NCBI RefSeq assembly: GCF_003991155.1
Contig: NZ_CP031294.1
Length of the DNA stretch: 64,000 nt
From: Escherichia coli
GTDB taxonomy: Bacteria > Pseudomonadota > Gammaproteobacteria > Enterobacterales > Enterobacteriaceae
Direction: 5' to 3' (one strand)
The position numbers and the translations under genes were made by a program. Below, piece after piece: positions 1 to 56,700 of the stretch. The notes below the pieces were generated by a model, which saw only the letters and a program-made list of their open reading frames with translations, was not told the origin of the DNA and made no database searches. Numbering within the stretch: position 1 is the first letter of the stretch; every line of letters starts with the position of its first letter.

Positions 1-1198
1 AAAGATTGTCGTTAATTACACATTTTATCTTAGAAATAAACTCAGATTCATTGTCCTTGAATGAGTCACTAAAAATATCCCAAACATTGTTAACCTCACA
101 TAAAGCCTTGTGTTCTTTATATTGTTTATTTTTTTCTTCTATTATACCTCGAATATTGCTTTCAGTAGAAAGATAACCATTCTTGAGATAAAAATCTATG
201 TCATCATCGAAAGCAATTTCCGCTCGTTCATAAATAATATCAAGACTATTAATAAATGAATATACAGAATCATCCTTTTTATCATCTAACATGTAATCAA
301 ATACATGTATGTTTTTAATTGATTCTTTAAACAAGGCATAATCAACACCTGGAACACCAGAATAGTAAACCACTGAAAACAGAACCAATCTATTGATAAA
401 ACTTTCTCTAACCTTATCCTCTGCCAAGCTTAGCTCATTCCTAAGATTAACCAGAGATGTTTTTATTTTATTTAATATACGGATATTTTTAATGCCTAAG
501 TCATTTGCTAAGACTTTTAACAAAAGAAAATCAGAATCAGTTTCATAAAAAACTTTACGTAAGTTCTTCTCAGGCGTAGGATCGTATTTTATTTCGACAT
601 CAATTACTTTTTCTCTGTACTCTAAAAACTGTTTTTTTGCAGTTTCATCATGTAAATTATCTTCATTTAAAATTAGAACAACTTTGCAACCTTTTCTTCT
701 TGCTAATTCATCAATTACCCCCATAATTTCTTTAACTTCTAGCGAATTACCTTTTCTTTCAACATCATCAATACAAACCAAATAATTATTAACAAATTTA
801 TACTCAAGAGATGACAGCAGGTTATCTGTTTTGAACCCAAAAAAATCGTTCTTTCCGAAATGTATTAAAAATTTTGACAAGGAGTTGTATTTCAACCATC
901 CCCAAAACCCATTTCTATAACGAATCATAGTTCGATCCGTTTCAGATAAAATTAGTTCTTTATATTTCTTTTCATTAATTGGTGTGGCACAATGATAAAG
1001 AGTTTTTTTAATATCACCAATAGAGTTAACCCCAAACAAAGAAACATACGAATATGCATTAAAATCTAATCCTTCAGAATGCTTAGTATAAAAACTATTC
1101 CAATAATGAGTTTTACCAACGCCCCAATCTCCTTTTATGACGGCAACCCGATGATCTGAAACTAGAAAATTTTTTAGAAATGATTCTATCGATTCCAT
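1..1198 (-). CDS. KAP-like P-loop NTPase (partial; C-terminus runs off the left window edge)
   Basis: Absent from the ORF track because there is no stop in the window. Manual reverse-strand translation from ATG 1198 is open for all 399 codons: MESIESFLKNFLVSDHRVAVIKGDWGVGKTHYW... Walker A GDWGVGKT (GxWGxGKT/S form of KAP NTPases). Walker B-like LVCIDDVER. AGGA lies 9 nt upstream. Strikingly AT-rich versus its neighbours. Confidence 0.7.
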   Translation of the reverse strand, partial: MESIESFLKNFLVSDHRVAVIKGDWGVGKTHYWNSFYTKHSEGLDFNAYSYVSLFGVNSIGDIKKTLYHCATPINEKKYKELILSETDRTMIRYRNGFWGWLKYNSLSKFLIHFGKNDFFGFKTDNLLSSLEYKFVNNYLVCIDDVERKGNSLEVKEIMGVIDELARRKGCKVVLILNEDNLHDETAKKQFLEYREKVIDVEIKYDPTPEKNLRKVFYETDSDFLLLKVLANDLGIKNIRILNKIKTSLVNLRNELSLAEDKVRESFINRLVLFSVVYYSGVPGVDYALFKESIKNIHVFDYMLDDKKDDSVYSFINSLDIIYERAEIAFDDDIDFYLKNGYLSTESNIRGIIEEKNKQYKEHKALCEVNNVWDIFSDSFKDNESEFISKIKCVINDNL

Positions 1199-1219
1199 TA
1201 GTATCAATCCTTTAATTCA

Positions 1220-1248
1220 TATATTGGGCGTAACAAACGCCCAATATA
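1220..1248 (-). terminator. perfect 12-bp-stem hairpin between the partition operon and the NTPase gene
   Basis: TATATTGGGCGT-aacaa-ACGCCCAATATA lies directly after the stop at 1250. There is no clear U-tract, so it may be an insulator or processing hairpin. Confidence 0.4.
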
Positions 1249-1249
1249 A

Positions 1250-1609
1250 TCAACCTTTCTTCATCAACTCTCGTTTAATTTCATCGGTACGCATCGTAAC
1301 GTCGGCAGCTGTGATCGCCTCGTTAAGCTTCACGATGTCCTCGATTTCCTGCGGTGACTTCTCTGCCAGATGGAAAATGGCTGCTCGAATCACGTCAGAA
1401 CGAGTGAACTTCTCGAAGCGAGGGATGAACTTCATCATCTCCAGCAGTTCGAAGTATTCGTCTTCCAGTGACATTGTGCGGCTTTTAATTTTCTCTTTGC
1501 CACGAGTCGGGCGTCCCTGTGGTCTGACTGGTTGGCGCAAAGGAGTTGTGTTCTTAGCCGGTGCATCAGGCTCTTTGCGCTTTGCTAGGTCACCCATTTT
1601 CATGGACAT
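1250..1609 (-). CDS. partition centromere-binding partner (ParG/RHH-like)
   Basis: 119 aa. Basic disordered N-terminus (KRKEPDAPAKN...RPQGRPTRGKEK) plus a helical C-terminal domain. The start overlaps the parA stop. Size and position are typical of a type Ib ParA partner. Confidence 0.55.
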   Translation of the reverse strand: MSMKMGDLAKRKEPDAPAKNTTPLRQPVRPQGRPTRGKEKIKSRTMSLEDEYFELLEMMKFIPRFEKFTRSDVIRAAIFHLAEKSPQEIEDIVKLNEAITAADVTMRTDEIKRELMKKG

Positions 1610-2277
1610 TATTCTTCTTCCTCCAGACTCAACAGATAATCTACAAATTCTTCAAACTCGGCTTCCGCCTTTTTGTCGCGCTCGTTACCGGTCATTTCAA
1701 AGATAGAACGACCAGACTCTTCCGCATCATCATAGACGTTGCGGTTATATAGATTGACTGGCGCAGACTCGATGCCAAACGTCTCAACAATCTCTTTAGC
1801 CGCCAGAATGCGAGACACTTGTGATGGCAAAGCCGGGCACTGGTTCATGACCGCGCGGACCTTCACTTTATCGTTTACATTACGAACATTGTCGATAATA
1901 GGATCAATGTCACGTAAAGATTTCAAATCACGACGCTTAGGACGCAGCGGGATAATGATAACGTCAGCCATCAGCATCGCTTGTCGCTGAATTTCGGAGT
2001 CGAAGCCACCAGCATCTACCACTACAAACTCAGCTCTACCCTGAAGCGATTTTAGGTGCTTAATGATGTCATCCTGAACGTATGCAAAAGGAATCAGCTC
2101 AAGGTCTTCGTTCTGTCGACGGTCTTCACACCAGCTCGTTGTCGTGCGCTGAATATCTATATCGGTAATATAAACCTTCTTCTTCTTTTTGACTTTCAGG
2201 CAAACGGCAATTTGCTGGGCAACGGTGGATTTGCCAGGCCCGCCCTTTGTGCCGCCAACCACAAAGATCTTGGTCAT
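1609..2277 (-). CDS. parA: ParA-family partition ATPase (small, type Ib)
   Basis: 222 aa. Deviant Walker A GGTKGGPGKST (KGGxGKS/T). ParA/ParF-like length. Confidence 0.85.
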   Translation of the reverse strand: MTKIFVVGGTKGGPGKSTVAQQIAVCLKVKKKKKVYITDIDIQRTTTSWCEDRRQNEDLELIPFAYVQDDIIKHLKSLQGRAEFVVVDAGGFDSEIQRQAMLMADVIIIPLRPKRRDLKSLRDIDPIIDNVRNVNDKVKVRAVMNQCPALPSQVSRILAAKEIVETFGIESAPVNLYNRNVYDDAEESGRSIFEMTGNERDKKAEAEFEEFVDYLLSLEEEE

Positions 2278-2312
2278 TGGAGAGTTCCCTTTGCGTATAT
2301 AATTATCGTCTG

Positions 2313-2343
2313 AAACAACTTGTTTTCTTATATGTGATATAGC
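2313..2343 (-). promoter_or_regulatory. E-type promoter/leader module (copy upstream of parA)
   Basis: The plus strand reads AAACAACTTGTTTTCTTATATGTGATATAGCC. It has the palindrome AAACAA-c-TTGTTT plus a downstream ATATC(-10-like) element on the gene strand. Confidence 0.5.
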
Positions 2344-2423
2344 CTAAATGCCTACGGCTGTGGTGTAAAGGTTAAATGGTAGGTGCTGCCTTAGAATTTT
2401 TAGGCGAGAATTAATGGCTGTTA

Positions 2424-2448
2424 ACAAAAAAGGCGACCAAAGTCGCCT
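2424..2448 (-). terminator. rho-independent terminator
   Basis: AGGCGAC-caaa-GTCGCCT followed on the minus strand by TTTTTTGTT. It sits 5 nt after the stop at 2454. Confidence 0.75.
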
Positions 2449-2453
2449 GATTT

Positions 2454-3206
2454 TTAATCTTTTAGGTATAAACCTACTGGAGTTCTTGTTTTGCGGGAGA
2501 TGATAAGTACGATAAATTTCTGAACGTTAACTTGCACTTTGTTTGGGAGCCAAGAGCTTAACTCTGCATCAAGCAACAATCCTCTGTTCCACGGCAAAAA
2601 TCCGGTTTCTTTCCCCATCCCGTACTCACCTAACACATCTTCGAACGTTTCTGTTTTGGCATTGTATATACGCACATCGCCGGTTCGCATGAGAGGCCCT
2701 GCCCAGATCTTAGCACCAGGAATGGTTTGTGTATCGTCGCAGACTAAATGCTCATACCAATGAAGAAGAAAGAGATAGGTACGGTGACACAATCCTCGCT
2801 GACGACGCTCTCTGACAGTTTCGACACCAGCTACCTGGTAACATTCGATCTCATTACCGTCTTCAACAAAACTATATTCACGCAGAGCTATCCTACCAGC
2901 GATCGTATTTTTGTTTTCGTCCAGAAGCCCGGACTGGAGCACCTCTTTGATAATCTCTTCTTCAGGGGCATCTTCATCCGCTCGATCTAAGATGAATTCG
3001 CTCAGGTCGCCTTGGTCGCGCGCACCTACACGTTCCATAGAGACATACAGGCAAATGTCATCTTCTGGTTCAATGATTTCAATTTCTGAGATTTTATAGA
3101 GGTAGGCTTCATTGATAAGAAAGCCAAAACGAACAACACGAGTCTCCCCTTTATGAGGAAACTCGCTTAGATCTTTTGAATATGCGCTATCTAGTGTAGG
3201 AGCCAT
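2454..3206 (-). CDS. hypothetical protein (250 aa)
   Basis: Long ORF overlapping the upstream gene by 16 nt and followed by a terminator. No motif recognised. Confidence 0.6.
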   Translation of the reverse strand: MAPTLDSAYSKDLSEFPHKGETRVVRFGFLINEAYLYKISEIEIIEPEDDICLYVSMERVGARDQGDLSEFILDRADEDAPEEEIIKEVLQSGLLDENKNTIAGRIALREYSFVEDGNEIECYQVAGVETVRERRQRGLCHRTYLFLLHWYEHLVCDDTQTIPGAKIWAGPLMRTGDVRIYNAKTETFEDVLGEYGMGKETGFLPWNRGLLLDAELSSWLPNKVQVNVQKFIVLIISRKTRTPVGLYLKD

Positions 3207-3574
3207 TTTGTAGCAGAATCATCAGCCTTAACCGTGCTGACAATGCTACCATGATTGCGTAAGAAGCGGCGAATAGAATGTTCAATAACCTCCGAAAAAG
3301 CCTCGATAAAACGAGACAGCTCAGGGTACTGTTTAGCTGGCTTGACTACAAAACGAACACGACCATTCAGGTAAATTGCTTCAGCTAATGGCTTCACGCT
3401 TGCACCAGCGCGCTCAACATCGTCTTTGAAGGTAACGATGAAGCGTGAGTCTTCCGGTTCAATAGCGTCATTATTGAGCTTACGTACTTCAAGCTTGTGC
3501 TGATTCAGCACATGAGTCTCGATAATACTCGTGCAATCGCGAATAGTTTGTATAGAACGTTTCTCGTTCAGCAT
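3191..3574 (-). CDS. hypothetical protein (127 aa)
   Basis: ORF with RBS AAGGTGGA 5 nt before the ATG. First gene of a 2-gene unit. Confidence 0.6.
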   Translation of the reverse strand: MLNEKRSIQTIRDCTSIIETHVLNQHKLEVRKLNNDAIEPEDSRFIVTFKDDVERAGASVKPLAEAIYLNGRVRFVVKPAKQYPELSRFIEAFSEVIEHSIRRFLRNHGSIVSTVKADDSATKWLLH

Positions 3575-5431: not shown

Positions 5432-8400
5432 TCAGTTACTTGTTGCCCCAACAGTACCTGCAAATTTCAGCCATTGACCTGACGGACTTCTATTACTACG
5501 GTAATGATAAACGAGGATTGCGTTTGTAACTCCACCGTAGTCAGCTTTATGTGACGTTGTTAAACGAATTGTATAATCACCGTTAGGTAGATTAAAAACT
5601 TCGATTATAGATTCTGCTAATTCTACAGCACCAAATCCCGTTATATTGTTGATACTGCCAGCATTGAATCCCATAGCATCGCCAAAGCCAATCCAATAAC
5701 TTTTGCTAAACGCCCCATTTGATTTTAGGTGGCTAATGAATGTGGACAAACTCATGCCCATATCCCCACCTGAAACAGAGGAAGTTCGCACAGTCATACT
5801 TGGAAGAGCACTGCTCTTCACATAGGAACTTAGAAGGTTTGTTACCTCTGTTTTCGTATAGGCATTAAGGTTAGCCGCAGTCAAAGTAATATCGGCAGAG
5901 CCATCAAACGCCACACCAGCAATTTTCCTTGCTGTCTGCAATTTTGTGGCAGTGGCAGCATTACCAGTAGTGTTCTGATTACCGGTTGTATTCACACCAG
6001 GTATTGAATCCTTAGCGGTATATACCTGCGCCCACGCAGACCATGCCGCATCAGTGGTATCTCTTCGGGAGCGAATGAAAACCGGCGCATGTGCACCGCT
6101 CGTACCACTCCAGCCAATAAGCAACTCGCCCTCACCAGCAGCACTCGCACCTTTCATGTGCAATACGTTGCCATACGTGGTCGGGTAGCTATTGCTGTAC
6201 GCCTCGTACATTTGAATGCCAGCAGTACCTTGAGCAGAACCGCTTAACGCCGTAACTCGGCCACGAGATACCAATGTATTAATGTTGATATCGCCTGAGC
6301 CATCAAACTTAACACCATTGATGTTTCTCGCTGTTTGCAACTTCGTAGCTGTTGAAGCATTACCGTTCAAACTACCATTTACGCCACCAGTCACATTTAG
6401 TCCATTACCAATTGATACAGCACCGCTGGTATTATTAATTGTAATAGGTCGCAAACCGTTCCATGAACCTAATGTGTCTCCTGATGCTGTTAGCATGAAA
6501 TATGTGTTCGATCCATCATTACGGATAAAGAACCCAAAGCTACCGTAAGCAATGCGGAAACCATTTGCATATTTTGAAATGATCTCGCCAGAAGATGTCA
6601 AACCTCCAGATAATGTACCACCGGTAAGAGGTAATGCACCGACATCAGAGGCTGTTGGTTTGTTTTTCGTGTTATATACTCTTCGCCATCCTGGAGAATA
6701 ATCTGTGCCATTAAATACATAGATAAACTCCGCATTAGTGAGAGCACCAGAGACACTCGTCGTTGTGGCCGTTGTTATACGGATCGTATAATTGTTTGAG
6801 CTACTACCGTTATTAAATACCTCTATAACAGCTCCTGCCAATGGAATAACGCCACAACCAGTTTCACTATTTGGTATGGTTGCACTATTGGCATAGGCCC
6901 ACGCACATCGAGCAATCCATGACTTTGTGTTAAATGCTCCATTATTTTGCAATAACGTCACTAACTGTGCTGTTGTTATTGCTCCGCCATTACTTCCTGT
7001 AGTTAACCAACCAGTAGGAGATGCCGGGCAACCTATATTTGCTGGCGACAAGGAAATATTTGCCGAGCCGTCAAACGACACCCCATTAATAGTACGCGCA
7101 GTCTGCAACTTCGTAGCAGTAGCCGCGTTGCCCGTTGTATTCTGATTACCAGTCGTATTAACACCTGGCAAATTAATATTCGCAGTACCATCAAAGCTCA
7201 CGCCGCCGATAGTTCTTGCCGTCTGAAGTTTTGTAGCAGTTGCAGCATTACCAGTGGTGTTCTGATTACCCGTAGTATTTACACCTGGAAGGTTGATATT
7301 TGCAGAACCGTCGAAACCAACTCCACCGATAGATCTTGCCGTCTGCAATTTCGTGGCTGTACTTGCATTACCATTCAATGAACCAGTTAATCCACCTGTA
7401 ACAGACAACGGACCTGAAACTGTTCCTCCGGTTGTTGGCAGTGCTCCAATATCTGATGGTGTAGGTTTCTGATGTGAGCTATACATCGTATAAACAACAC
7501 CATCGGTAACGCTGGAAGGCTTACTCGCTGAATATGTTGGCGAGGTATAAATAGAAACTGTCGCATTTGCAGTACAATCCCAATGGATATTTACACGAGT
7601 CGCATAATTGCCAATCTCAACGTAAATATCATATGTATCGCCGGATGTGTTGATCCAGGCGAAATTCGTTAATCCGACAGCTGTACGCTTCCACAAAGCA
7701 CCTGTAATCCCTTTGGGGTTTCCATTGCCTGCTCGTAGAACCAGTTCTGAAATGCCTGCCTGATGTGGGGAGCCGACGTTGTAACCAGCGCCACCAATCA
7801 ATGCGATGTAAACGATGGAACTCGCTTGTGGCATGGTAACCGTAGCCAGTTTGAACCACCCTGCCCCGCCAGAGAAAGACATCGTTACTGAATTTAAAGT
7901 ACCAATATCTTTCGGCGTTAATGTGATATCCGCAGTCAGTGCTTTACCGTTAACTTTTCGGTTAGATGGCACCCTGCTATTCGCATTGTCATTGGCTGCT
8001 TTAACTGCTTTTGGCGTTGCGGCCAGCGATTCACTGGTGCTGTCGACAGCACTGCTAAGTTTCACAACACCTTTAGTTGTAAGGCTTGCGTCTTCCATCG
8101 CAACTGCACCGGCAATCTCTTCAGCACGATCAGCAGCAGCTTCCGCACGGGTCGCAGCGGATTCAGCAGCAGTTTTGCTCTGAGATGCTGCCGTCGCACT
8201 GCCTGCCGCCTCTGTTGCTTTCGTGGATGCCGTCGTGGCACTGCCCTTCGCTGCTGACGCCTGTCTGGTCGCCTCATCTTTTGAAGCAGACGCAGATGAT
8301 GCCGATGACGCCGCCGAACTGGCGGACGATGCGGCAGCCGTTTTTGAGGATTCTGCGCTGGTTTCCGACGCTTTCGCGTTCGTTTCGGATGTCTTCGCTG

Positions 8401-9460
8401 CGGAAGCAGACCTCGCTGCTGCGCTGGCCTGTTCAGTGGCTTCGCCAGCCTTCGTTGTGGCTGTTGAAGCAGACGATGCGGCACTTTCTGCCGATTTTCC
8501 GGCGGCGGTGGCACTGGCTGAGGCCTGCCCGGCACTTGTTGACGCGGCACTGGCAGACGACGCAGCCGCTGTTTTTGAGCCTGCCGCAGCTGAGGCACTC
8601 TGTGCTGCTGCCGTCTCAGAAGACTTAGCGTTCGTCTCGGACGTTTTTGCCGCCTTCGCGGAATTGCCTGCCGCTGTTGCCGAGGAGGCTGCACTACTGG
8701 CGCTCAAGGATGCGTTCGTTTCTGATGATTTCGCTGCCTCTTTTGAGGCCGCCGCATCCCGGACTGAGGTGGCAGCTTCTGACGCTTTCGTGGTCGCGGT
8801 GGATGCAGAAGTGGCTGCTGATTGTTGTGACGCTGCGGCATTCGTTTCAGATTTTTTCGCAGCAGTTGCACTCGCACTTGCGGCACTTTGTGAGGATGCC
8901 GCAGCGGATGCACTTTGAGACGCTTGAGAGGCTTTTTCTCCAGCGGTATTGGCGCTTTCTGCTGCTGCGGCAGCACTGGCCGCCGCCTCACGAGCTTTGT
9001 CGCCAGCAGCATCAATCGCGTCAGTGTTATTTTTATACCACTCAACGTTTTCGTTGTGCTCGTTGACGATCTGCATTAGCGGCTTAACGGTTACTTCTGT
9101 ACCGTCTTCACGCTCGATTGTCACCTCATCCAGAGCAGTCAACCAACTGCGCATAGACTTGGAATCAGCCGACATACGCGACATTAGTGCTGTAAAGCGC
9201 GCGCTAAACTGTGTTAAGTCGCCTTCATAGGTCGTAATGATTCGGCACGGAACCTCAGACTGAGTTTCGCCGGTATAAGGTTCTGAGAGAACAATATTCG
9301 TATCGCTTATTACGCGCTTGATCTCATACAGCTTATTGTCGGGGCCAATGACGATCATCCCCGGCAACACACCATTAGCTGTTACGTTCCAGGCTGTCCC
9401 TGCCCCAACCAGAGTATTGCTACCCTGTGTAAATGTGATAGTACCTTCCCTGTACCACAT
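5432..9460 (-). CDS. side tail fibre (lambda Stf-like collar, fibre repeats, two tip-like domains)
   Basis: 1342 aa. The Ala/Ser-rich segment ...AAKTSETNAAASQQSAATSASTATTKASEAATS...KGVVKLSSAVDSTSESLAATPKAVK matches the lambda Stf collar from memory. There are 5 copies of GNA(A/S)TATKLQTAR-x-I-x-GV-x-FDGS. Confidence 0.9.
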   Translation of the reverse strand: MWYREGTITFTQGSNTLVGAGTAWNVTANGVLPGMIVIGPDNKLYEIKRVISDTNIVLSEPYTGETQSEVPCRIITTYEGDLTQFSARFTALMSRMSADSKSMRSWLTALDEVTIEREDGTEVTVKPLMQIVNEHNENVEWYKNNTDAIDAAGDKAREAAASAAAAAESANTAGEKASQASQSASAAASSQSAASASATAAKKSETNAAASQQSAATSASTATTKASEAATSVRDAAASKEAAKSSETNASLSASSAASSATAAGNSAKAAKTSETNAKSSETAAAQSASAAAGSKTAAASSASAASTSAGQASASATAAGKSAESAASSASTATTKAGEATEQASAAARSASAAKTSETNAKASETSAESSKTAAASSASSAASSASSASASKDEATRQASAAKGSATTASTKATEAAGSATAASQSKTAAESAATRAEAAADRAEEIAGAVAMEDASLTTKGVVKLSSAVDSTSESLAATPKAVKAANDNANSRVPSNRKVNGKALTADITLTPKDIGTLNSVTMSFSGGAGWFKLATVTMPQASSIVYIALIGGAGYNVGSPHQAGISELVLRAGNGNPKGITGALWKRTAVGLTNFAWINTSGDTYDIYVEIGNYATRVNIHWDCTANATVSIYTSPTYSASKPSSVTDGVVYTMYSSHQKPTPSDIGALPTTGGTVSGPLSVTGGLTGSLNGNASTATKLQTARSIGGVGFDGSANINLPGVNTTGNQNTTGNAATATKLQTARTIGGVSFDGTANINLPGVNTTGNQNTTGNAATATKLQTARTINGVSFDGSANISLSPANIGCPASPTGWLTTGSNGGAITTAQLVTLLQNNGAFNTKSWIARCAWAYANSATIPNSETGCGVIPLAGAVIEVFNNGSSSNNYTIRITTATTTSVSGALTNAEFIYVFNGTDYSPGWRRVYNTKNKPTASDVGALPLTGGTLSGGLTSSGEIISKYANGFRIAYGSFGFFIRNDGSNTYFMLTASGDTLGSWNGLRPITINNTSGAVSIGNGLNVTGGVNGSLNGNASTATKLQTARNINGVKFDGSGDININTLVSRGRVTALSGSAQGTAGIQMYEAYSNSYPTTYGNVLHMKGASAAGEGELLIGWSGTSGAHAPVFIRSRRDTTDAAWSAWAQVYTAKDSIPGVNTTGNQNTTGNAATATKLQTARKIAGVAFDGSADITLTAANLNAYTKTEVTNLLSSYVKSSALPSMTVRTSSVSGGDMGMSLSTFISHLKSNGAFSKSYWIGFGDAMGFNAGSINNITGFGAVELAESIIEVFNLPNGDYTIRLTTSHKADYGGVTNAILVYHYRSNRSPSGQWLKFAGTVGATSN

Positions 9461-37617: not shown

Positions 37618-38142
37618 ATGACAACCAAAGATATTACCTACGGTATCCAAGCTGAACTCTGGCCGCGAGATTACACTAACGTTGAAAAACTACTGATGTT
37701 CTGGCGCAGAGAACAAATTCCTGTAAGGGTCACTCTCGAAGATGGCCAGGCGTTTTGCATGTACGTTTATGGCCTCATGCCATCTCGTAACAAAGTTGAC
37801 CTTTGCCCAGCCCCTTTTGACAAAGAAAATCGTATAAGGCTCCCACTTGAACGCATTAGTACAATTGAATCAGGTGTGGTTGACAGTATCGCTCACGATT
37901 TCAAAGGTCGACTAACAGTTCACCCTGATTATGTCGATAATCGGCCATCACGCCGCGATTTTTTTGCAATTTGCAACCAAGCCTACAAAGCAAACAAATC
38001 TATAAGGGTGTACATGGCGGATGGCCGTGAAATTGAGGGGGTGTCAGCAGGCGCAGATGCTTGTCAGGTTACACTACGTGTCGAGAACGGTAGAAAAATA
38101 GTTGTTTTGTTCGATTGGGTTGAACGAATTTTGCCTTTTTGA
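37618..38142 (+). CDS. hypothetical protein with two Rof-like/Sm-like repeats (tentative)
   Basis: Start set to ATG 37618, 4 nt after the upstream stop. Two segments fit the pattern (I/V)xVxxxDGxxxxGxxxxxxxxxxVxLxxxxxxxxxxLxxIxxI. The Rof assignment comes from memory and is weak. Confidence 0.4.
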   Translation: MTTKDITYGIQAELWPRDYTNVEKLLMFWRREQIPVRVTLEDGQAFCMYVYGLMPSRNKVDLCPAPFDKENRIRLPLERISTIESGVVDSIAHDFKGRLTVHPDYVDNRPSRRDFFAICNQAYKANKSIRVYMADGREIEGVSAGADACQVTLRVENGRKIVVLFDWVERILPF

Positions 38143-38145
38143 GTT

Positions 38146-38454
38146 ATGAAATCGATATTGTTACCACCATTATTTTTACTTTGCTCAGTTGCGGCAAATG
38201 CAATGGACTATAAGCCTGTCATTCAGTCGCTGATGAATGACGTGTGCTCAACGTCTCAGAATGTATCAGTTTGCATGTATCAATTTTCGGCAGCCGTAAA
38301 AGCAGGAAAAGCGATAGGCGAGAATGTGGAACTGTGTAAGAAAGTGGCAAATGAAGAACGGGCAATGTTGGATTGCGAATCTAGCGAGTCATCGGCACAG
38401 TTCGTTGATGCGCTATTTGACACCAATCGTAAGGCTGTAGAGTCTGTTCAATAA
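38146..38454 (+). CDS. secreted small protein
   Basis: 102 aa. Sec signal MKSILLPPLFLLCSVAANA|M. Four Cys. Confidence 0.55.
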   Translation: MKSILLPPLFLLCSVAANAMDYKPVIQSLMNDVCSTSQNVSVCMYQFSAAVKAGKAIGENVELCKKVANEERAMLDCESSESSAQFVDALFDTNRKAVESVQ

Positions 38455-38466
38455 ATCTATAAGGTT

Positions 38467-38496
38467 AATAACCGGCTAAGTCCGGTTATTATTTTT
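38467..38496 (+). terminator. rho-independent terminator
   Basis: AATAACCGG-ctaagt-CCGGTTATT followed by ATTTTT. Confidence 0.8.
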
Positions 38497-38645
38497 CACA
38501 TCACTTCTTTATATCTACAAATCAAATAACCTAAATATATATAAGGTCTAAAGCCGCAATCAATTATTTATTTAGGGAACACCTTCGACGATCTCGCTTT
38601 TATTTCTAGGACTTTCATCCCTGCAAAAAATTTAAAAAAAAACAC

Positions 38646-38673
38646 TTGCAATCTTTTTTCGCATATCGATAAT
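38646..38673 (+). promoter_or_regulatory. sigma70-like promoter of the AT-rich three-gene cassette
   Basis: TTGCAA-N16-GATAAT, about 65 nt upstream of ATG 38739. Confidence 0.5.
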
Positions 38674-38738
38674 TGAACTCGTCGAAAGCGAAGACGCTAA
38701 CGACAATAAATTTTAAATTTACATAAGGAAAAATTATC

Positions 38739-39389
38739 ATGGCTAACATTATCATTTCTAAAAAATCCATCATTGAAGCTGCTTCCATTGTATCCGATGA
38801 ACTGCGCGAAAAAGCAGATCTGGCAACTCAAACATATAACGAACATTATAAAAATGGTACGCACACTAAAGCAGACAAAGCAAATATGCAAGCTGCGACC
38901 ACTAAACTTGCTTACTTCATCAACAACGTCGTAAACGCAGTAGAAGACGAAAAATTATGCTCTGTTTTCTACTATGCGATTAAAGCAAGCAAACAAGCGC
39001 CAGAAGTATTTTTCCGTGATGCAATGACTAATAGTTATTCTCTGGAAAAACTGGTTTATCTGGTTAAATCAATTAAATCTGGTAAATGCGTTTATTCCAT
39101 CGCTGATATGTCTGGATCTCGTGTATTCGCTTTAATCGATATGATTAACGACGAGATCGACACGTTCACTAATGGCGCTGTTTTCGATTTAATGAATGAA
39201 GCTAAAAAAGCGTGTGAAATTAAATTGGACGCTGGTTATACTCAAGCCAACCAGTTGATCAATCTTTGCGAACGTCTTGGACTTGTTGAAAAAGTCAAAG
39301 GAGCTGGGAGCGCGAAAGCTGGTACTCAGCAATATCGCTTCATTAAAAATGATTTCTACAATTATTTAGCTGATGCTTTCAAAGCGTAA
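38739..39389 (+). CDS. hypothetical protein (216 aa), possible C-terminal wHTH
   Basis: AT-rich gene with codon usage different from its neighbours. RBS AAGGAAAAA. Confidence 0.6.
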   Translation: MANIIISKKSIIEAASIVSDELREKADLATQTYNEHYKNGTHTKADKANMQAATTKLAYFINNVVNAVEDEKLCSVFYYAIKASKQAPEVFFRDAMTNSYSLEKLVYLVKSIKSGKCVYSIADMSGSRVFALIDMINDEIDTFTNGAVFDLMNEAKKACEIKLDAGYTQANQLINLCERLGLVEKVKGAGSAKAGTQQYRFIKNDFYNYLADAFKA

Positions 39390-39401
39390 TTAATGGAATC
39401 A

Positions 39402-39420
39402 AGCGCCCACTATGGGCGCT
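39402..39420 (+). terminator. hairpin AGCGCCC-actat-GGGCGCT (copy 1, weak U-tract)
   Basis: Identical hairpin sequence to 39898-39916. It sits between genes 1 and 2 of the cassette and may act as an attenuator. Confidence 0.4.
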
Positions 39421-39437
39421 TTAAAGGAGCTTTGAAA

Positions 39438-39641
39438 ATGGTCAGCTATGACAAGATCCGCGCGGAATATCGCGCAAAGTATCGCGCTTATAAACTAGAA
39501 TTAATCGATGATTTAATCGCGCAACGCGACCAATTAAATTTTACGTTTTCTGATTTGCTTAACAGCAAGCGAGATTGCAAGCGCAAACGTGAATACTTAC
39601 GTTTAAGCGCATTAATCGGAAAACTTCAAAATTCTATTTAA
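39438..39641 (+). CDS. hypothetical small protein (67 aa)
   Basis: Start set to ATG 39438 (AAAGGAGC 9 nt upstream). Basic helical protein. Confidence 0.5.
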   Translation: MVSYDKIRAEYRAKYRAYKLELIDDLIAQRDQLNFTFSDLLNSKRDCKRKREYLRLSALIGKLQNSI

Positions 39642-39661
39642 TTTTTTTAAGGAGCTTAATC

Positions 39662-39892
39662 ATGTTTGTTCTTATCGCTGGCGTTAACGTCCATAACGAA
39701 TATTATGTTAATCGCATCGCTGGGATCGCTGGTTACGCTGGGCGCGCAGTCGAGTTTATCGATGAAACAACGCGTAAAATTGATTTATTGAGCGACCAGG
39801 AGCGAAAAAAAGCAGACGTGAACGACGCTGATATATTTTTAATGTTAAAAGCGTTTGTAGAAATGGGATTTAAAATCAGTTTACACAAATAA
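39662..39892 (+). CDS. hypothetical small protein (76 aa)
   Basis: RBS TAAGGAGC has the same context as the previous gene. Confidence 0.5.
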   Translation: MFVLIAGVNVHNEYYVNRIAGIAGYAGRAVEFIDETTRKIDLLSDQERKKADVNDADIFLMLKAFVEMGFKISLHK

Positions 39893-39897
39893 AATCG

Positions 39898-39922
39898 AGC
39901 GCCCACTATGGGCGCTTTTTTC
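39898..39922 (+). terminator. rho-independent terminator
   Basis: AGCGCCC-actat-GGGCGCT followed by TTTTTT. Confidence 0.8.
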
Positions 39923-39940
39923 GTTTCCAATACTTCCACA

Positions 39941-40087
39941 ATAACGCGCCATTGATGGCGCGTTTTTTATTGTCTTTAACTCACTCCAACAACATAAAAA
40001 TAAGCGCCAAAATAACGCCATAAACGCGCTTTTATATCCTTACCAGTACATACCCATTACTTAACACATTAACGCGCTTAAAACGCG
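39941..40087. repeat. cluster of ATAA(N)CGC(G/C) repeats, including three tandem 11-mers
   Basis: aaATAAGCGCC/aaaATAACGCC/ATAAACGCGC at 39998-40029. Further copies at 39941, 40068 and 40078. Confidence 0.6.
39943..39969 (+). terminator. second tandem terminator
   Basis: AACGCGCCA-ttga-TGGCGCGTT followed by TTTTAT. Confidence 0.7.
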
Positions 40088-50837: not shown

Positions 50838-52396
50838 ATGAAAATGACAAGTATTCAACAACGTGCAGAGCTTCATCGCCAGATCTGGCAAATTGCTAAC
50901 GATGTCAGGGGTTCAGTCGATGGATGGGATTTTAAGCAGTACGTTTTGGGCGCGCTTTTTTACCGTTTTATCAGCGAAAATTTTTCCAGTTATATTGAAG
51001 CCGGTGATGACAGTATCTGTTATGCGAAACTGGATGACAGCGTAATTACTGATGACATTAAAGACGATGCCATCAAAACTAAAGGCTACTTCATCTACCC
51101 CAGTCAGCTTTTCTGCAACGTAGCTGCGAAAGCAAATACTAATGACAGACTGAATGCAGATTTAAACAGCATCTTCGTTGCTATCGAAAGTTCTGCTTAC
51201 GGTTATCCTTCAGAAGCTGACATCAAAGGTTTGTTTGCTGATTTCGATACCACCAGTAACCGCCTGGGTAACACCGTTAAAGATAAAAATGCCCGCTTGG
51301 CTGCGGTTCTGAAAGGGGTTGAAGGGCTAAAACTTGGTGACTTCCATGAACATCAGATTGACCTGTTCGGTGACGCCTATGAGTTCCTGATTTCTAACTA
51401 TGCGGCGAATGCCGGTAAGTCCGGCGGCGAGTTCTTTACACCGCAGCACGTCTCTAAGCTGATTGCACAACTGGCTATGCACGGGCAGACCCACGTTAAC
51501 AAAATCTACGACCCGGCAGCAGGCTCCGGTTCGCTGTTGTTGCAGGCGAAAAAACAGTTTGATGACCATATCATCGAAGAAGGTTTTTTTGGTCAGGAAA
51601 TCAACCATACGACCTATAACCTGGCGCGTATGAACATGTTTTTGCACAACATCAACTACGACAAGTTTGATATCAAGCTGGGTAATACACTGACTGAGCC
51701 GCACTTCAGAGATGAAAAACCGTTTGATGCCATCGTTTCTAACCCGCCGTATTCGGTGAAATGGATTGGCAGCGATGACCCGACGCTGATTAACGATGAA
51801 CGTTTTGCCCCGGCTGGCGTTCTGGCCCCCAAATCCAAAGCTGACTTTGCGTTTGTATTACATGCGCTGAACTATCTTTCGGCCAAAGGTCGCGCTGCGA
51901 TTGTCTGCTTCCCAGGCATTTTTTACCGTGGCGGCGCGGAGCAGAAAATCCGTCAGTATCTGGTCGACAATAACTATGTCGAAACCGTGATTTCACTGGC
52001 ACCGAATCTGTTCTTTGGCACCACTATTGCCGTCAATATTCTGGTGCTGTCTAAACATAAAACGGATACCAAAGTTCAGTTTATTGATGCCAGCGAACTG
52101 TTCAAAAAAGAGACTAACAACAACATTCTGACCGATGCTCATATCGAACAGATTATGCAGGTATTTGCCAGCAAGGAAGATGTTGCTCATCTGGCGAAAT
52201 CTGTTGCGTTTGAGACTGTTGTCGCGAATGACTATAACCTGTCGGTGAGCAGCTATGTGGAAGCGAAAGATACTCGCGAAATTATCGATATCGCTGAGCT
52301 GAATGCTGAGCTGAAAACCACGGTCAGCAAAATCGACCAGTTGCGTAAAGATATTGATGCGATTGTTGCTGAGATTGAAGGTAGCGAGGTACAGGC

Positions 52397-52400
<4 letters not shown>
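50838..52400 (+). CDS. hsdM: type I R-M methyltransferase subunit, type IC (EcoR124 family)
   Basis: 520 aa. [25 protein letters not shown]..., SAM motif DPAAGSGS, catalytic NPPYS. Essentially EcoR124I HsdM from memory. Confidence 0.95.
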
Positions 52401-53656
<1,256 letters not shown>

Positions 53657-53777
53657 TTGACCATTGCTACCGACCGGATCACCTTAACATCCGGTCTATA
53701 TAGAGACTATTTTTTACACGCCGGAAGTCGCCCTTAAAGCCCTTCCGGCCCTTGCCAGACGGCACAAAGGATGCGCT

Positions 53778-56700
53778 ATGACTCATCAGACACACACCAT
53801 TGCTGAATCCAATAACTTTATCGTTCTTGATAAGTACATCAAAGCCGAGCAAACAGGCGACAGCTACCAGAGCGAATCGGACCTGGAACGTGAACTGATT
53901 CAGGATCTGCGGAATCAGGGCTATGAATTTATTTCCGTAAAATCTCAGTCGGCGATGCTGGCCAACGTTCGGGAACAGCTTCAGAGCCTCAATGGTGTGA
54001 TGTTTAATGACAGCGAGTGGCGGCGCTTCACGGAGCAGTATCTGGACAACCCCAGCGATGGTATTCTGGATAAAACCCGTAAAATCCATATCGACTATAT
54101 CTGCGACTTTATTTTTGACGACGGGCGACTTGAGAACATCTATTTGATAGATAAAAAGAATCTCATGCGCAATAAGGTGCAGATTATCCAGCAGTTTGAA
54201 CAGACGGGTTCTCATGCTAACCGTTATGACGTCACGATCCTGGTTAATGGTTTACCGCTGGTGCAAATCGAACTAAAAAAACGCGGGGTGGCGATTCGTG
54301 AGGCTTTCAACCAGATACATCGTTACAGTAAAGAGAGTTTTAACAGCGAAAATTCCCTGTTTAAGTATCTGCAACTGTTTGTCATTTCTAACGGCACCGA
54401 TACCCGTTATTTTGCCAACACGACAAAGCGCGATAAAAACAGTTTTGACTTCACCATGAATTGGGCGAAATCAGACAACACGCTGATTAAAGACCTCAAA
54501 GACTTTACCGCTACCTTTTTCCAGAAACATACTCTGCTGAATGTTCTGGTGAACTACAGCGTTTTTGACAGTAGTCAGACGCTACTGGTGATGCGACCGT
54601 ACCAGATTGCCGCCACCGAGCGCATTCTGTGGAAAATTAAGAGTTCCTTTACAGCGAAGAACTGGTCAAAACCGGAAAGCGGTGGGTATATCTGGCATAC
54701 TACCGGTTCTGGTAAAACCCTCACCAGCTTTAAAGCCGCGCGTCTGGCAACAGAGCTGGACTTTATTGATAAAGTCTTCTTTGTGGTCGACAGGAAAGAC
54801 CTCGATTACCAGACCATGAAGGAATATCAGCGTTTTTCGCCAGACAGCGTCAACGGCTCGGAAAATACCGCAGGCCTTAAACGAAATCTGGATAAGGACG
54901 ATAACAAAATTATCGTCACTACTATTCAGAAACTCAATAACCTGATGAAAGCAGAAAGCGACCTGCCTGTATATAATCAGCAAGTGGTGTTTATATTTGA
55001 TGAATGCCACCGCAGCCAGTTTGGAGAAGCGCAGAAAAACCTGAAGAAGAAATTCAAACGCTATTATCAGTTTGGTTTTACCGGCACCCCTATTTTCCCG
55101 GAAAACGCTTTAGGCTCAGAAACGACCGCCAGCGTATTTGGTCGTGAATTGCATTCGTATGTAATTACCGATGCGATTCGTGATGAAAAAGTGCTCAAAT
55201 TCAAGGTGGACTACAACGATGTGCGGCCACAGTTTAAATCTTTAGAGACAGAAACCGACGAGAAAAAACTGAGTGCGGCTGAAAATCAGCAGGCATTTCT
55301 TCATCCCATGCGTATACAGGAAATTACGCAATATATTCTGAATAACTTCCGCCAGAAGACCCACCGTACTTTCCCAGGTTCCAAAGGCTTTAATGCCATG
55401 CTGGCAGTGAGTAGCGTGGATGCCGCGAAAGCCTATTACGCGACGTTTAAACGGTTACAAGAGGAAGCAGCTAATAAATCGGCTACCTATAAACCGCTGC
55501 GTGTTGCAACAATCTTCTCCTTTGCCGCCAATGAAGAACAAAATGCCATTGGTGAAATTTCCGATGAAACTTTTGATACCAGCGCAATGGACAGCAGTGC
55601 TAAAGAGTTTCTTGACGCTGCAATTCGTGAGTATAACAGCTATTTTAAAACTAACTTCAGCACCGACAGTAACGGTTTTCAGAACTACTATCGTGATTTA
55701 GCCCAACGGGTTAAAAATCAGGATATCGATCTGTTAATTGTCGTTGGGATGTTTTTAACCGGCTTCGACGCTCCAACATTGAACACGCTATTCGTCGATA
55801 AAAACTTGCGTTTTCACGGCCTGATGCAGGCATTCTCCCGTACCAACCGCATTTATGACGCTACTAAAACCTTCGGTAACATCGTCACTTTTCGGGATCT
55901 GGAACGCTCAACCATTGATGCCATAACGCTGTTTGGTGATAAAAATACTAAAAATGTGGTGTTAGAAAAGAGTTATGCTGAGTATATGGAAGGCTTTACA
56001 GATGCTGCCACTGGTGAAGCTAAACGCGGCTTTATGGCAGTAGTTTCAGAACTGGAACAACGGTTCCCTGACCCTGCCAGTATTGAAAGTGAAAAACAGA
56101 AGAAAGACTTCGTAAAACTGTTTGGTGAATACCTGCGTGCCGAGAACATCCTGCAAAACTATGATGAATTTGCCACGCTGAAAGCCCTGCAACAAATCGA
56201 TCTTAGCGATCCTGTTGCGGTAGAAAAATTCAAAGCAGAACATTATGTGGATGATGAAAAGTTCGCTGAATTGCAAACAATTCGTCTCCCTGCTGAACGC
56301 AAGATTCAGGATTATCGTTCTGCCTATAACGATATTCGCGACTGGCAGCGCCGTGAGAAAGAAGCTGAGAAAAAAGAGAAATCAACCACTGACTGGGATG
56401 ACGTAGTTTTTGAGGTCGATTTGCTGAAGTCTCAGGAAATAAACCTGGATTATATCCTTGGACTGATTTTCGAACACAACAGACAAAATAAAGGCAAGGG
56501 CGAAATGATCGAAGAGGTCAAACGCTTAATTCGTTCAAGCCTGGGGAACCGGGCGAAAGAGGGCCTGGTGGTCGATTTTATTCAGCAAACGAACCTGGAT
56601 GATTTACCAGACAAAGCCAGTATCATTGAGGCATTCTTTACGTTTGCTCAACGCGAACAGCAACGTGAAGCAGAAGCATTGATAAAAGAAGAAAATCTCA

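Follow-up and report, generated by a model that had tools for sequence, protein, structure and literature searches.

What does the gene that opens at the very left edge of this DNA encode, how does it come to stand there, and what could it do for the element carrying it? The stretch analysed, hereafter the window, comprises 64,000 nucleotides (nt) of Escherichia coli contig NZ_CP031294.1 (assembly GCF_003991155.1). An earlier note, made from its letters alone, had pointed to an A+T-rich, KAP-like P-loop nucleoside triphosphatase (NTPase) gene at 1-1198, and had read it as recently acquired cargo of a kind recurrent in anti-phage loci. Broadly, the follow-up described here shows a one-gene cassette, standing in an exchange site of an SSU5-like phage-plasmid and encoding a soluble KAP-family NTPase joined to a helical solenoid. 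The function with most support is a role in defence or exclusion, whereas the recent acquisition is not borne out.

The gene and its protein

On the minus strand, the window translates without a stop from an ATG at 1198-1196 to position 1, giving the 399 codons that the earlier note had described. The gene was indeed missing from the program-made list of open reading frames (ORFs), which holds nothing for 1-1198, because the lister skips frames running off an end of its source. At 29% guanine plus cytosine (GC), random codons would be stops at a rate of ~8%, and the chance of 399 open codons is ~1e-15 by arithmetic from the composition. The window holds the first 399 of 564 codons (the 5' two thirds), and some 497 nt of the gene lie past its left edge. 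Codons 400-564 were taken from plasmids 100% identical to the window. In one of these, NZ_OW849379.1 (locus L001, whose position 8001 is window position 1), the full-length coding sequence is intact (L001 7504-9198; WP_000443723.1, 564 amino acids (aa), annotated as “P-loop NTPase fold protein”), and the disruption further on that the earlier note had named as a possible outcome is not seen. A decaying remnant or a chance open frame can be regarded as refuted, its probability being negligible: strongly deviant composition can accompany pseudogenes, and length changes of 1 nt occur in one copy from E. coli and one from Shigella, but the frame stays open over 399 codons of 71% A+T DNA, the gene is full length in 27 genomes, its catalytic motifs are invariant, its ratio of nonsynonymous to synonymous substitution rates (dN/dS) is 0.23, and its AlphaFold2 (AF2) model is confident.

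The identification as a KAP-like P-loop NTPase stood up in the profile searches that the earlier note had proposed. Pfam KAP_NTPase (PF07693) scores 25.6 bits with the 399-aa part and 24.8 with the full-length protein, against a cut-off of 20, over profile positions 12-278 of 293, and nearly all homologues carry a precomputed PF07693 match. For the 399-aa part, the STAND models of Pfam stay under their cut-offs (nSTAND3, 17.3 vs 27.2 bits; NACHT, 11.6 vs 26.7). PADLOC PDC-S49 is matched at E = about 2e-22 to 5e-22, only by residues 3-223 against profile positions 8-214 of 624, and PHROG 4740, a family of unknown function, at 1e-135. No family was matched in an NCBIfam search, and sequence searches of the PDB with full-length and C-terminal profiles returned nothing meaningful, the best hit being citramalate synthase at E = 0.01-0.02. 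The full-length protein belongs to no characterised non-defence family, a membership that in the earlier note would have spoken against its proposal.

The GDWGVGKT and VCIDDVER stretches picked out in the earlier note are both present in the translation and satisfy the KAP-family patterns for Walker A (GxxGxGK[ST]) and Walker B (hhhhDDxxR). In an alignment of 41 homologues (27-77% identity, aligned end to end), G23, W25, G26, G28, K29 and T30 of the former and C142, D144, D145, E147 and R148 of the latter are invariant, as are an AYSYxSLFG block, N178, YREK 194-197 and N238/R240/K244. N178 ends strand 4, YREK 194-197 precedes strand 5 and N238-I239-R240 starts a lid helix; from AAA+ topology, N178, R195 and R240 would occupy the sensor-1, arginine-finger and sensor-2 positions, respectively. 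Judged by these residues, the NTPase module appears to keep everything expected for oligomer-dependent hydrolysis of nucleoside triphosphates (NTP). Structural superposition of core and lid gives an ORC/Cdc6-like AAA+ fold, with matches also to RdrA, TnsC, MuB and plant nucleotide-binding leucine-rich repeat proteins (NLRs). Strand 1 starts at residue 18 of the model, and the 17 residues before it leave no room for an N-terminal effector domain. An insert of 83 residues (aa 57-139) separates strands 2 and 3; its aromatic-rich part, aa 97-126, is poorly modelled and disordered in the model. No transmembrane segment was found in the full-length protein (best Kyte-Doolittle 19-residue window, 1.35); transmembrane helices in or near the NTPase domain are typical of the KAP family, although not strictly defining, as PifA is without them.

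The remaining part of the protein, aa 256-564, is an acidic all-helical solenoid, which the structure search describes as a generic helical repeat with no enzyme fold. The absence of an effector domain, noticed earlier for the visible 399 aa, holds for the full 564 aa too: Pfam and structure searches revealed no nuclease, protease, TIR, pore or other effector domain in the full-length protein. Only G341, W373, W504 and R557 are invariant in the C-terminal half across the same 41 homologues. A profile of the C-terminal domain gathered 1715 representative clusters among 1.84 billion proteins, and in every full-length match listed the domain sits at about residues 220-600 of a 530-610-aa protein. 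Because of this uniform placement, NTPase and solenoid are a fixed pair.

Regarding base composition, the A+T content is far above that of the adjacent partition genes, as had been estimated by eye (29% GC vs 45-48% next door). GC amounts to 0.29-0.30 over 1-1250 vs 0.44-0.50 in the following kilobases (kb), bin 1-1000 being the lowest among all 64 one-kb bins of the window. In the full locus L001 the low-GC island consists of the KAP gene alone, which lies 16 points under the backbone. The step from A+T-richness to recent acquisition is nonetheless rejected, since the whole family shares the low GC: in 99% of 77 loci (L001-L097, across phyla and at any host GC; median difference, -12 GC points) the KAP gene exceeds its flanking DNA in A+T, and the Klebsiella and Salmonella versions, which occupy the same slot at 40-44% identity, also have ~30% GC. 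The low GC is a property of the family and no sign of recent arrival on this plasmid.

The cassette slot of the phage-plasmid

Positions 1-3000 of the window have 100% identity with several non-mobilizable E. coli plasmids of ~110 kb. Since the backbone of these plasmids has matches in Salmonella phage SSU5, in the Escherichia phages Cyrano and PhiR41_1 and in Klebsiella relatives, the window belongs to an SSU5-like phage-plasmid. The KAP cassette measures 1.75 kb and consists of a single gene between the parA/parB-like operon and the replication module. Together with the hairpin ahead of it, the gene spans NZ_OW849379.1 31496-33250. The gene stands just outside the par operon, as the earlier note had placed it, next to the parB-like gene at 1250-1603; on its other side, to the left and outside the window, lies a conserved gene of 246 aa, along with genes for a DnaB-like helicase and a primase. 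In junction alignments of SSU5, Cyrano, pMTY18780-3 and the KAP plasmid, homology ends at the parB-like stop and restarts ~10 nt past the KAP stop, and homology between the window and KAP-less relatives begins at ~1243-1254 (slot coordinates: L001 7496-9250; L002 4202-5005; L003 3088-5000; L004 4849-6016). The contents of the slot differ from element to element (Table 1), the DUF2971 genes of Cyrano and SSU5 matching PADLOC candidate PDC-S31 at E = 3e-41 and 2e-33, respectively; Klebsiella and Salmonella phage-plasmids carry their own KAP versions at exactly this place. No flanking repeats or att-like sites were found around the cassette, only short AT-rich chance repeats, and there are no tRNA genes within the 64-kb window. 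Taken together, the alignments show a site of cassette exchange that reaches from the parB-like stop to the replication module.

The description of the gene as cargo is supported by its distribution. By DNA similarity, the KAP cassette is present in just 22 of 733 plasmids with a match to the par backbone. Among 5426 complete E. coli genomes, 27 have the full-length gene, always on ~110-kb plasmids. A protein search found a relative in 136 plasmids, 75 of them in Klebsiella and mostly of ~110 kb among the matches listed; the gene is present in ~20 of 240 backbone-matching plasmids of Escherichia and in 75 of 307 of Klebsiella. Furthermore, two E. coli alleles (L001 7504-9198 and L097 1501-3207; proteins WP_000443723.1 and WP_114569656.1) share 82.7% nucleotide and 76% amino-acid identity between flanking genes that are 97-99% identical. 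The pair has an overall dN/dS of 0.23 and a synonymous divergence (dS) of 0.56; along the gene, dS rises from 0.3 over the first 120 codons to 0.85-1.1 over the last 200, and the C-terminal 200 residues are 55-60% identical vs ~90% at the N-terminus. This pattern points to old alleles that form a mosaic, are swapped through conserved flanks and stand under purifying selection; by these measures the KAP gene is intact and under selection.

The perfect 12-bp hairpin ahead of the gene, which had drawn attention earlier, does exist, with arms that are 100% complementary. It starts 1 nt after the parB-like stop, ends 21 nt before the KAP ATG and marks the upstream end of the cassette. It is not special to this gene: 3 of the 4 other variants examined (the pMTY18780-3, Klebsiella and Salmonella cassettes) each have their own, different GC-cored hairpin after the parB-like stop, followed by a U-rich tail, so that the position is kept and the sequence is not (L004 ~6030-6066; L010 4960-4982; L012 4953-4980). 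The Cyrano junction shows an inverted repeat at the hairpin position, seen in the sequence. The hairpin of the KAP plasmid has no clear U tract and was left unlisted by the terminator scan; it would be a weak terminator at best, and may represent the 3'-end or terminator element of the par transcript. Promoter consensus scans around the cassette gave no more sites than shuffled sequence, and neither a promoter of its own nor a canonical terminator was found there. Because so short a distance separates hairpin and ATG, expression of the KAP gene probably depends on par-operon transcripts that read through the hairpin.

Such co-transcription with par, together with a place that has the par operon on one side and the 246-aa gene, helicase and primase on the other, could suit an accessory to the replication or partition of the phage-plasmid, for instance a DnaC/Cdc6-like loader for the DnaB-like helicase or a ParA helper; in structure, the protein matches Cdc6/ORC initiators best, and it has matches to TnsC and MuB as well. 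We consider this role very unlikely and reject it, because the KAP gene is dispensable across the backbone: beyond its presence in so few backbone plasmids, it is absent from SSU5, Cyrano and pMTY18780-3, the slot genes of the first two being unrelated to it. The composition 16 points under the backbone also speaks against an accessory, as do the homologues standing alone in chromosomes, integrative and conjugative elements (ICEs) and P2 prophages with no helicase near, and the acidic C-terminus, which makes a DNA binder unlikely.

Some further observations concern the surroundings of the slot and the rest of the window. The gene at 1250-1603 carries the label “RelE/ParE putative toxin” in the annotation of phage Cyrano, whereas RefSeq calls it “hypothetical”; that it serves as a ParB-like partner is assumed from position only. 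Between the ParA gene and the lysis cassette, 2454-3574 (minus strand) holds two hypothetical genes (250 and 127 aa) with no Pfam or PADLOC match; the equivalent place in Cyrano is occupied by a KacT-type acetyltransferase toxin-antitoxin pair, and the interval is apparently another variable slot. At 38001-40000 and 52001-54000, GC falls to 38-40%, the next-lowest values in the window, and these stretches may hold other cargo. Lastly, 8001-9000, inside a 1342-aa tail-fibre-like ORF (5432-9460, minus strand), has 59% GC and an AT skew of -0.33 vs a backbone of ~46% GC, and may be a recombined host-range segment.

Table 1. Features of the KAP gene and its surroundings in window coordinates, and gene content of the slot in the elements compared.
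Feature	Position	Strand	Basis or content
KAP-family NTPase gene, N-terminal 399 of 564 codons	1-1198	-	Open translation; Pfam KAP_NTPase, PADLOC PDC-S49 and PHROG 4740 matches
NTPase module, aa 1-255: AAA+/ORC-Cdc6-like core and helical lid	434-1198	-	
Walker A GDWGVGKT, aa 23-30	1109-1132	-	Sequence; invariant residues in 41 homologues
Walker B VCIDDVER, aa 141-148	755-778	-	Sequence; invariant residues in 41 homologues
Other invariant NTPase residues: N178, YREK 194-197, N238-I239-R240	479-667	-	Homologue alignment and secondary structure
C-terminal all-helical solenoid (aa 256-564), first 144 residues, aa 256-399	1-433	-	
Shine-Dalgarno-like AAAGGA, 9 nt upstream of ATG	1208-1213	-	Sequence; putative function
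Perfect 12-bp hairpin, 5-nt loop	arms 1220-1231 and 1237-1248	-	Inverted-repeat search; RNA fold -19.8 kcal/mol, z = -4.1
parB-like gene, 117 aa	1250-1603	-	Conserved backbone; no Pfam match, weak PADLOC HEC-02B match (E = 0.006)
ParA/MipZ-type ATPase	1609-2277	-	Annotation and Pfam
Slot content, Cyrano			One DUF2971 gene matching PADLOC PDC-S31
Slot content, SSU5			Three genes, one DUF2971
Slot content, pMTY18780-3			Two unknown genes
Slot content, KAP plasmid			KAP gene alone

Homologues and candidate functions

Relatives of the protein occur in 341 species (one genome per species), among them Proteobacteria, Cyanobacteria, Verrucomicrobiota, Acidobacteriota, Bacteroidota, Chloroflexota, Planctomycetota and one archaeon. 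The earlier note had placed the gene among stand-alone NTPases, and this agrees with an all-against-all BLAST of 766 neighbour ORFs from 71 loci, which revealed no partner gene. As no neighbour family is common to more than 5 of these loci, the gene works alone. In P2-like prophages of Rahnella, Pantoea and one other enterobacterium (n = 3), the homologue lies between GpA and the GpQ portal, an interval that constitutes the main P2 defence hotspot (PMC13586616). Homologues of 591-592 aa (L005 8001-9779; L096 7894-9669) are found inside the type IV secretion clusters of PFGI-1/ICEclc-type ICEs, in genomes of Salmonella salamae and E. coli O169:H41 and at differing positions in the two clusters. 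Within blastn sensitivity, the chromosomes of the 5426 complete E. coli genomes hold no copy of the family except on one ICE. The Oleispira homologue adjoins IS66 and T5orf172 genes, and that of Shewanella an OLD-like TOPRIM ATPase. Compared with PADLOC, 268 neighbour proteins from 43 loci gave matches to JetC, DpdE, DpdF, ZorD, PsyrT, type II restriction-modification, PtuA, GajA, AriA and DrmC, an association that is qualitative, as it was counted without a matched control. In this qualitative sense, homologues recur in defence hotspots and islands.

From this context and from precedent, defence or exclusion has the strongest support among the functions considered, and we hold it to be reasonably probable: an anti-phage or anti-mobile-element immunity gene, carried by the phage-plasmid for the benefit of its host and of itself. 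Mechanistically, the fast-diverging solenoid might bind an invader protein; binding would release the NTPase to oligomerise and hydrolyse NTP, and the active assembly could then stop infection, either by an ATP drain or by trapping or remodelling an invader complex. A bolder and rather doubtful form of the proposal would have a minimal, effector-less NLR-like immune protein whose NTPase oligomer is itself the weapon, acting through ATP depletion or as an ORC/TnsC-like assembly that captures a replication or packaging complex of the invader. In this form the acidic solenoid would provide the specificity, and the one-gene cassette would be traded by phage-plasmids, P2 prophages and ICEs for use against competing elements.

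The homologues within ICE conjugation clusters, a slot that turns over by recombination whatever its content, and the fact that no phenotype is known would also fit selfish or competitive cargo not aimed at phages, be it exclusion of rival plasmids or ICEs, counter-defence, or mere hitchhiking in a recombination-prone slot. We regard such cargo as unlikely in view of the purifying selection on the gene (dN/dS 0.23) and of a two-module architecture kept across many bacterial phyla; moreover, the P2 GpA-GpQ hotspot and the Gabija, Septu, Wadjet and Zorya neighbours fit anti-phage genes better.

Several points nevertheless weigh against the defence role. The anti-phage part of it is argued from genomic context and analogy, not from a phenotype of the protein or of a close homologue. 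The PDC systems are candidates only, and the match to the PDC-S49 profile does not go beyond its NTPase third. For SSU5-group phage-plasmids, a DefenseFinder survey reports different systems, and no NTPase or KAP gene is mentioned in it. The defence neighbours come from the uncontrolled count given above, and some homologues stand among housekeeping genes, as the solitary one in Pragia does. The C-terminal divergence of the two alleles, with dN/dS of 0.2-0.33 and high dS, speaks for a mosaic of older alleles rather than for demonstrated positive selection. Finally, given that no effector domain is present, any killing or blocking step is speculation.

The matter is of practical interest since clinical E. 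coli, Shigella sonnei, Klebsiella and Salmonella commonly carry SSU5-group phage-plasmids, the accessory genes of which shape the entry of phages and plasmids; the KAP gene of this slot is missed by DefenseFinder-based surveys. Should it prove active, the recently validated KAP NTPase defences would gain a soluble, effector-less branch, with relevance to the choice of therapeutic phages, and the two natural alleles, sharing an N-terminus and differing at the C-terminus, would offer a direct test of how specificity is encoded. Even if the gene has no activity against phages, the slot remains a record of modular exchange in phage-plasmids.

Comparison with known KAP and NTPase defences

An experimental precedent is provided by KAP NTPases fused to C-terminal regions of unknown function, which gave Walker-B-dependent phage resistance (PMC13552941). 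In EF_KAP, both Walker B and the C-terminal region are needed, and protection is equal at low and high multiplicity of infection, so that it is not abortive (PMC13552941). The present protein resembles EF_KAP as a single gene encoding a KAP NTPase followed by a region of ~300 residues with no recognisable domain; on the other hand, EF_KAP has two transmembrane helices and the present protein none, and the C-terminal domains are unrelated by sequence. A KAP protein of an Enterococcus faecalis plasmid, not shown to be EF_KAP, has 25% similarity in the NTPase part only.

PifA of plasmid F, the founding bacterial KAP protein, excludes T7 and also lacks transmembrane helices. Both are plasmid-borne, soluble KAP NTPases encoded beside maintenance genes, and both have GxWGxGKT and DDxxR. 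PifA differs in its size (741 aa vs 564 aa), in its unrelated C-terminal parts and in being paired with the repressor PifC, whereas the present gene is partnerless. Full-length homology to F PifA was not found, hhalign giving a probability of 37% over 72 columns around Walker B, where VCIDDVER aligns with DDLDR of PifA; BLASTP against PifA finds the Walker A stretch only. Membership of the same Pfam family, the common motifs and the soluble nature of PifA itself, together with an aromatic-rich, unmodelled insert (aa 97-126) that could touch the membrane, would allow a PifA-like, membrane-linked abortive infection, in which recognition of a phage protein leads to permeabilisation and nucleotide leakage rather than to a cytoplasmic NTPase switch. 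Such a mechanism seems to us distinctly unlikely, as homology is confined to the Walker regions, the protein has no hydrophobic segment, and EF_KAP, a tested KAP defence, does not act abortively.

Returning to a defence role through the NTPase itself, two further single-gene systems can be compared. PADLOC PDC-S49 is a candidate of ~620 residues derived from guilt-by-embedding (bioRxiv 10.1101/2024.01.29.577857), and we found no mention of it in the literature. The likeness lies in the single gene and in the matching 210-220 N-terminal positions; the other two thirds of the profile are unmatched, the C-terminal module being different or too diverged. Reve, a single-gene KAP P-loop system of the P4 satellite hotspot, protects E. 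coli against several phage families (PMC13586616). Like it, the present gene is a single KAP P-loop gene on a mobile element, and the homologues of its family occupy the P2 sister hotspot; this likeness is by description (the KAP domain), not by sequence comparison.

Avs/AVAST and other STAND (NLR-like) sensors differ from the present protein, which has no N-terminal effector domain and stays below the nSTAND3 and NACHT cut-offs. QatA, a KAP NTPase forming 7-8-mers, binds DNA and acts within the four-gene QatABCD operon; Tmn, of the YobI family, is a transmembrane decamer in which a solenoid arm senses a phage protein and ATP turnover is raised. The present protein has in common with both a P-loop NTPase of the KAP or KAP-like group, and is set apart from them as solitary, soluble and bearing an acidic C-terminus. 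It joins, as an additional candidate, the recently recognised class of single-gene KAP-NTPase defences, distinguished within it by being soluble and effector-less.

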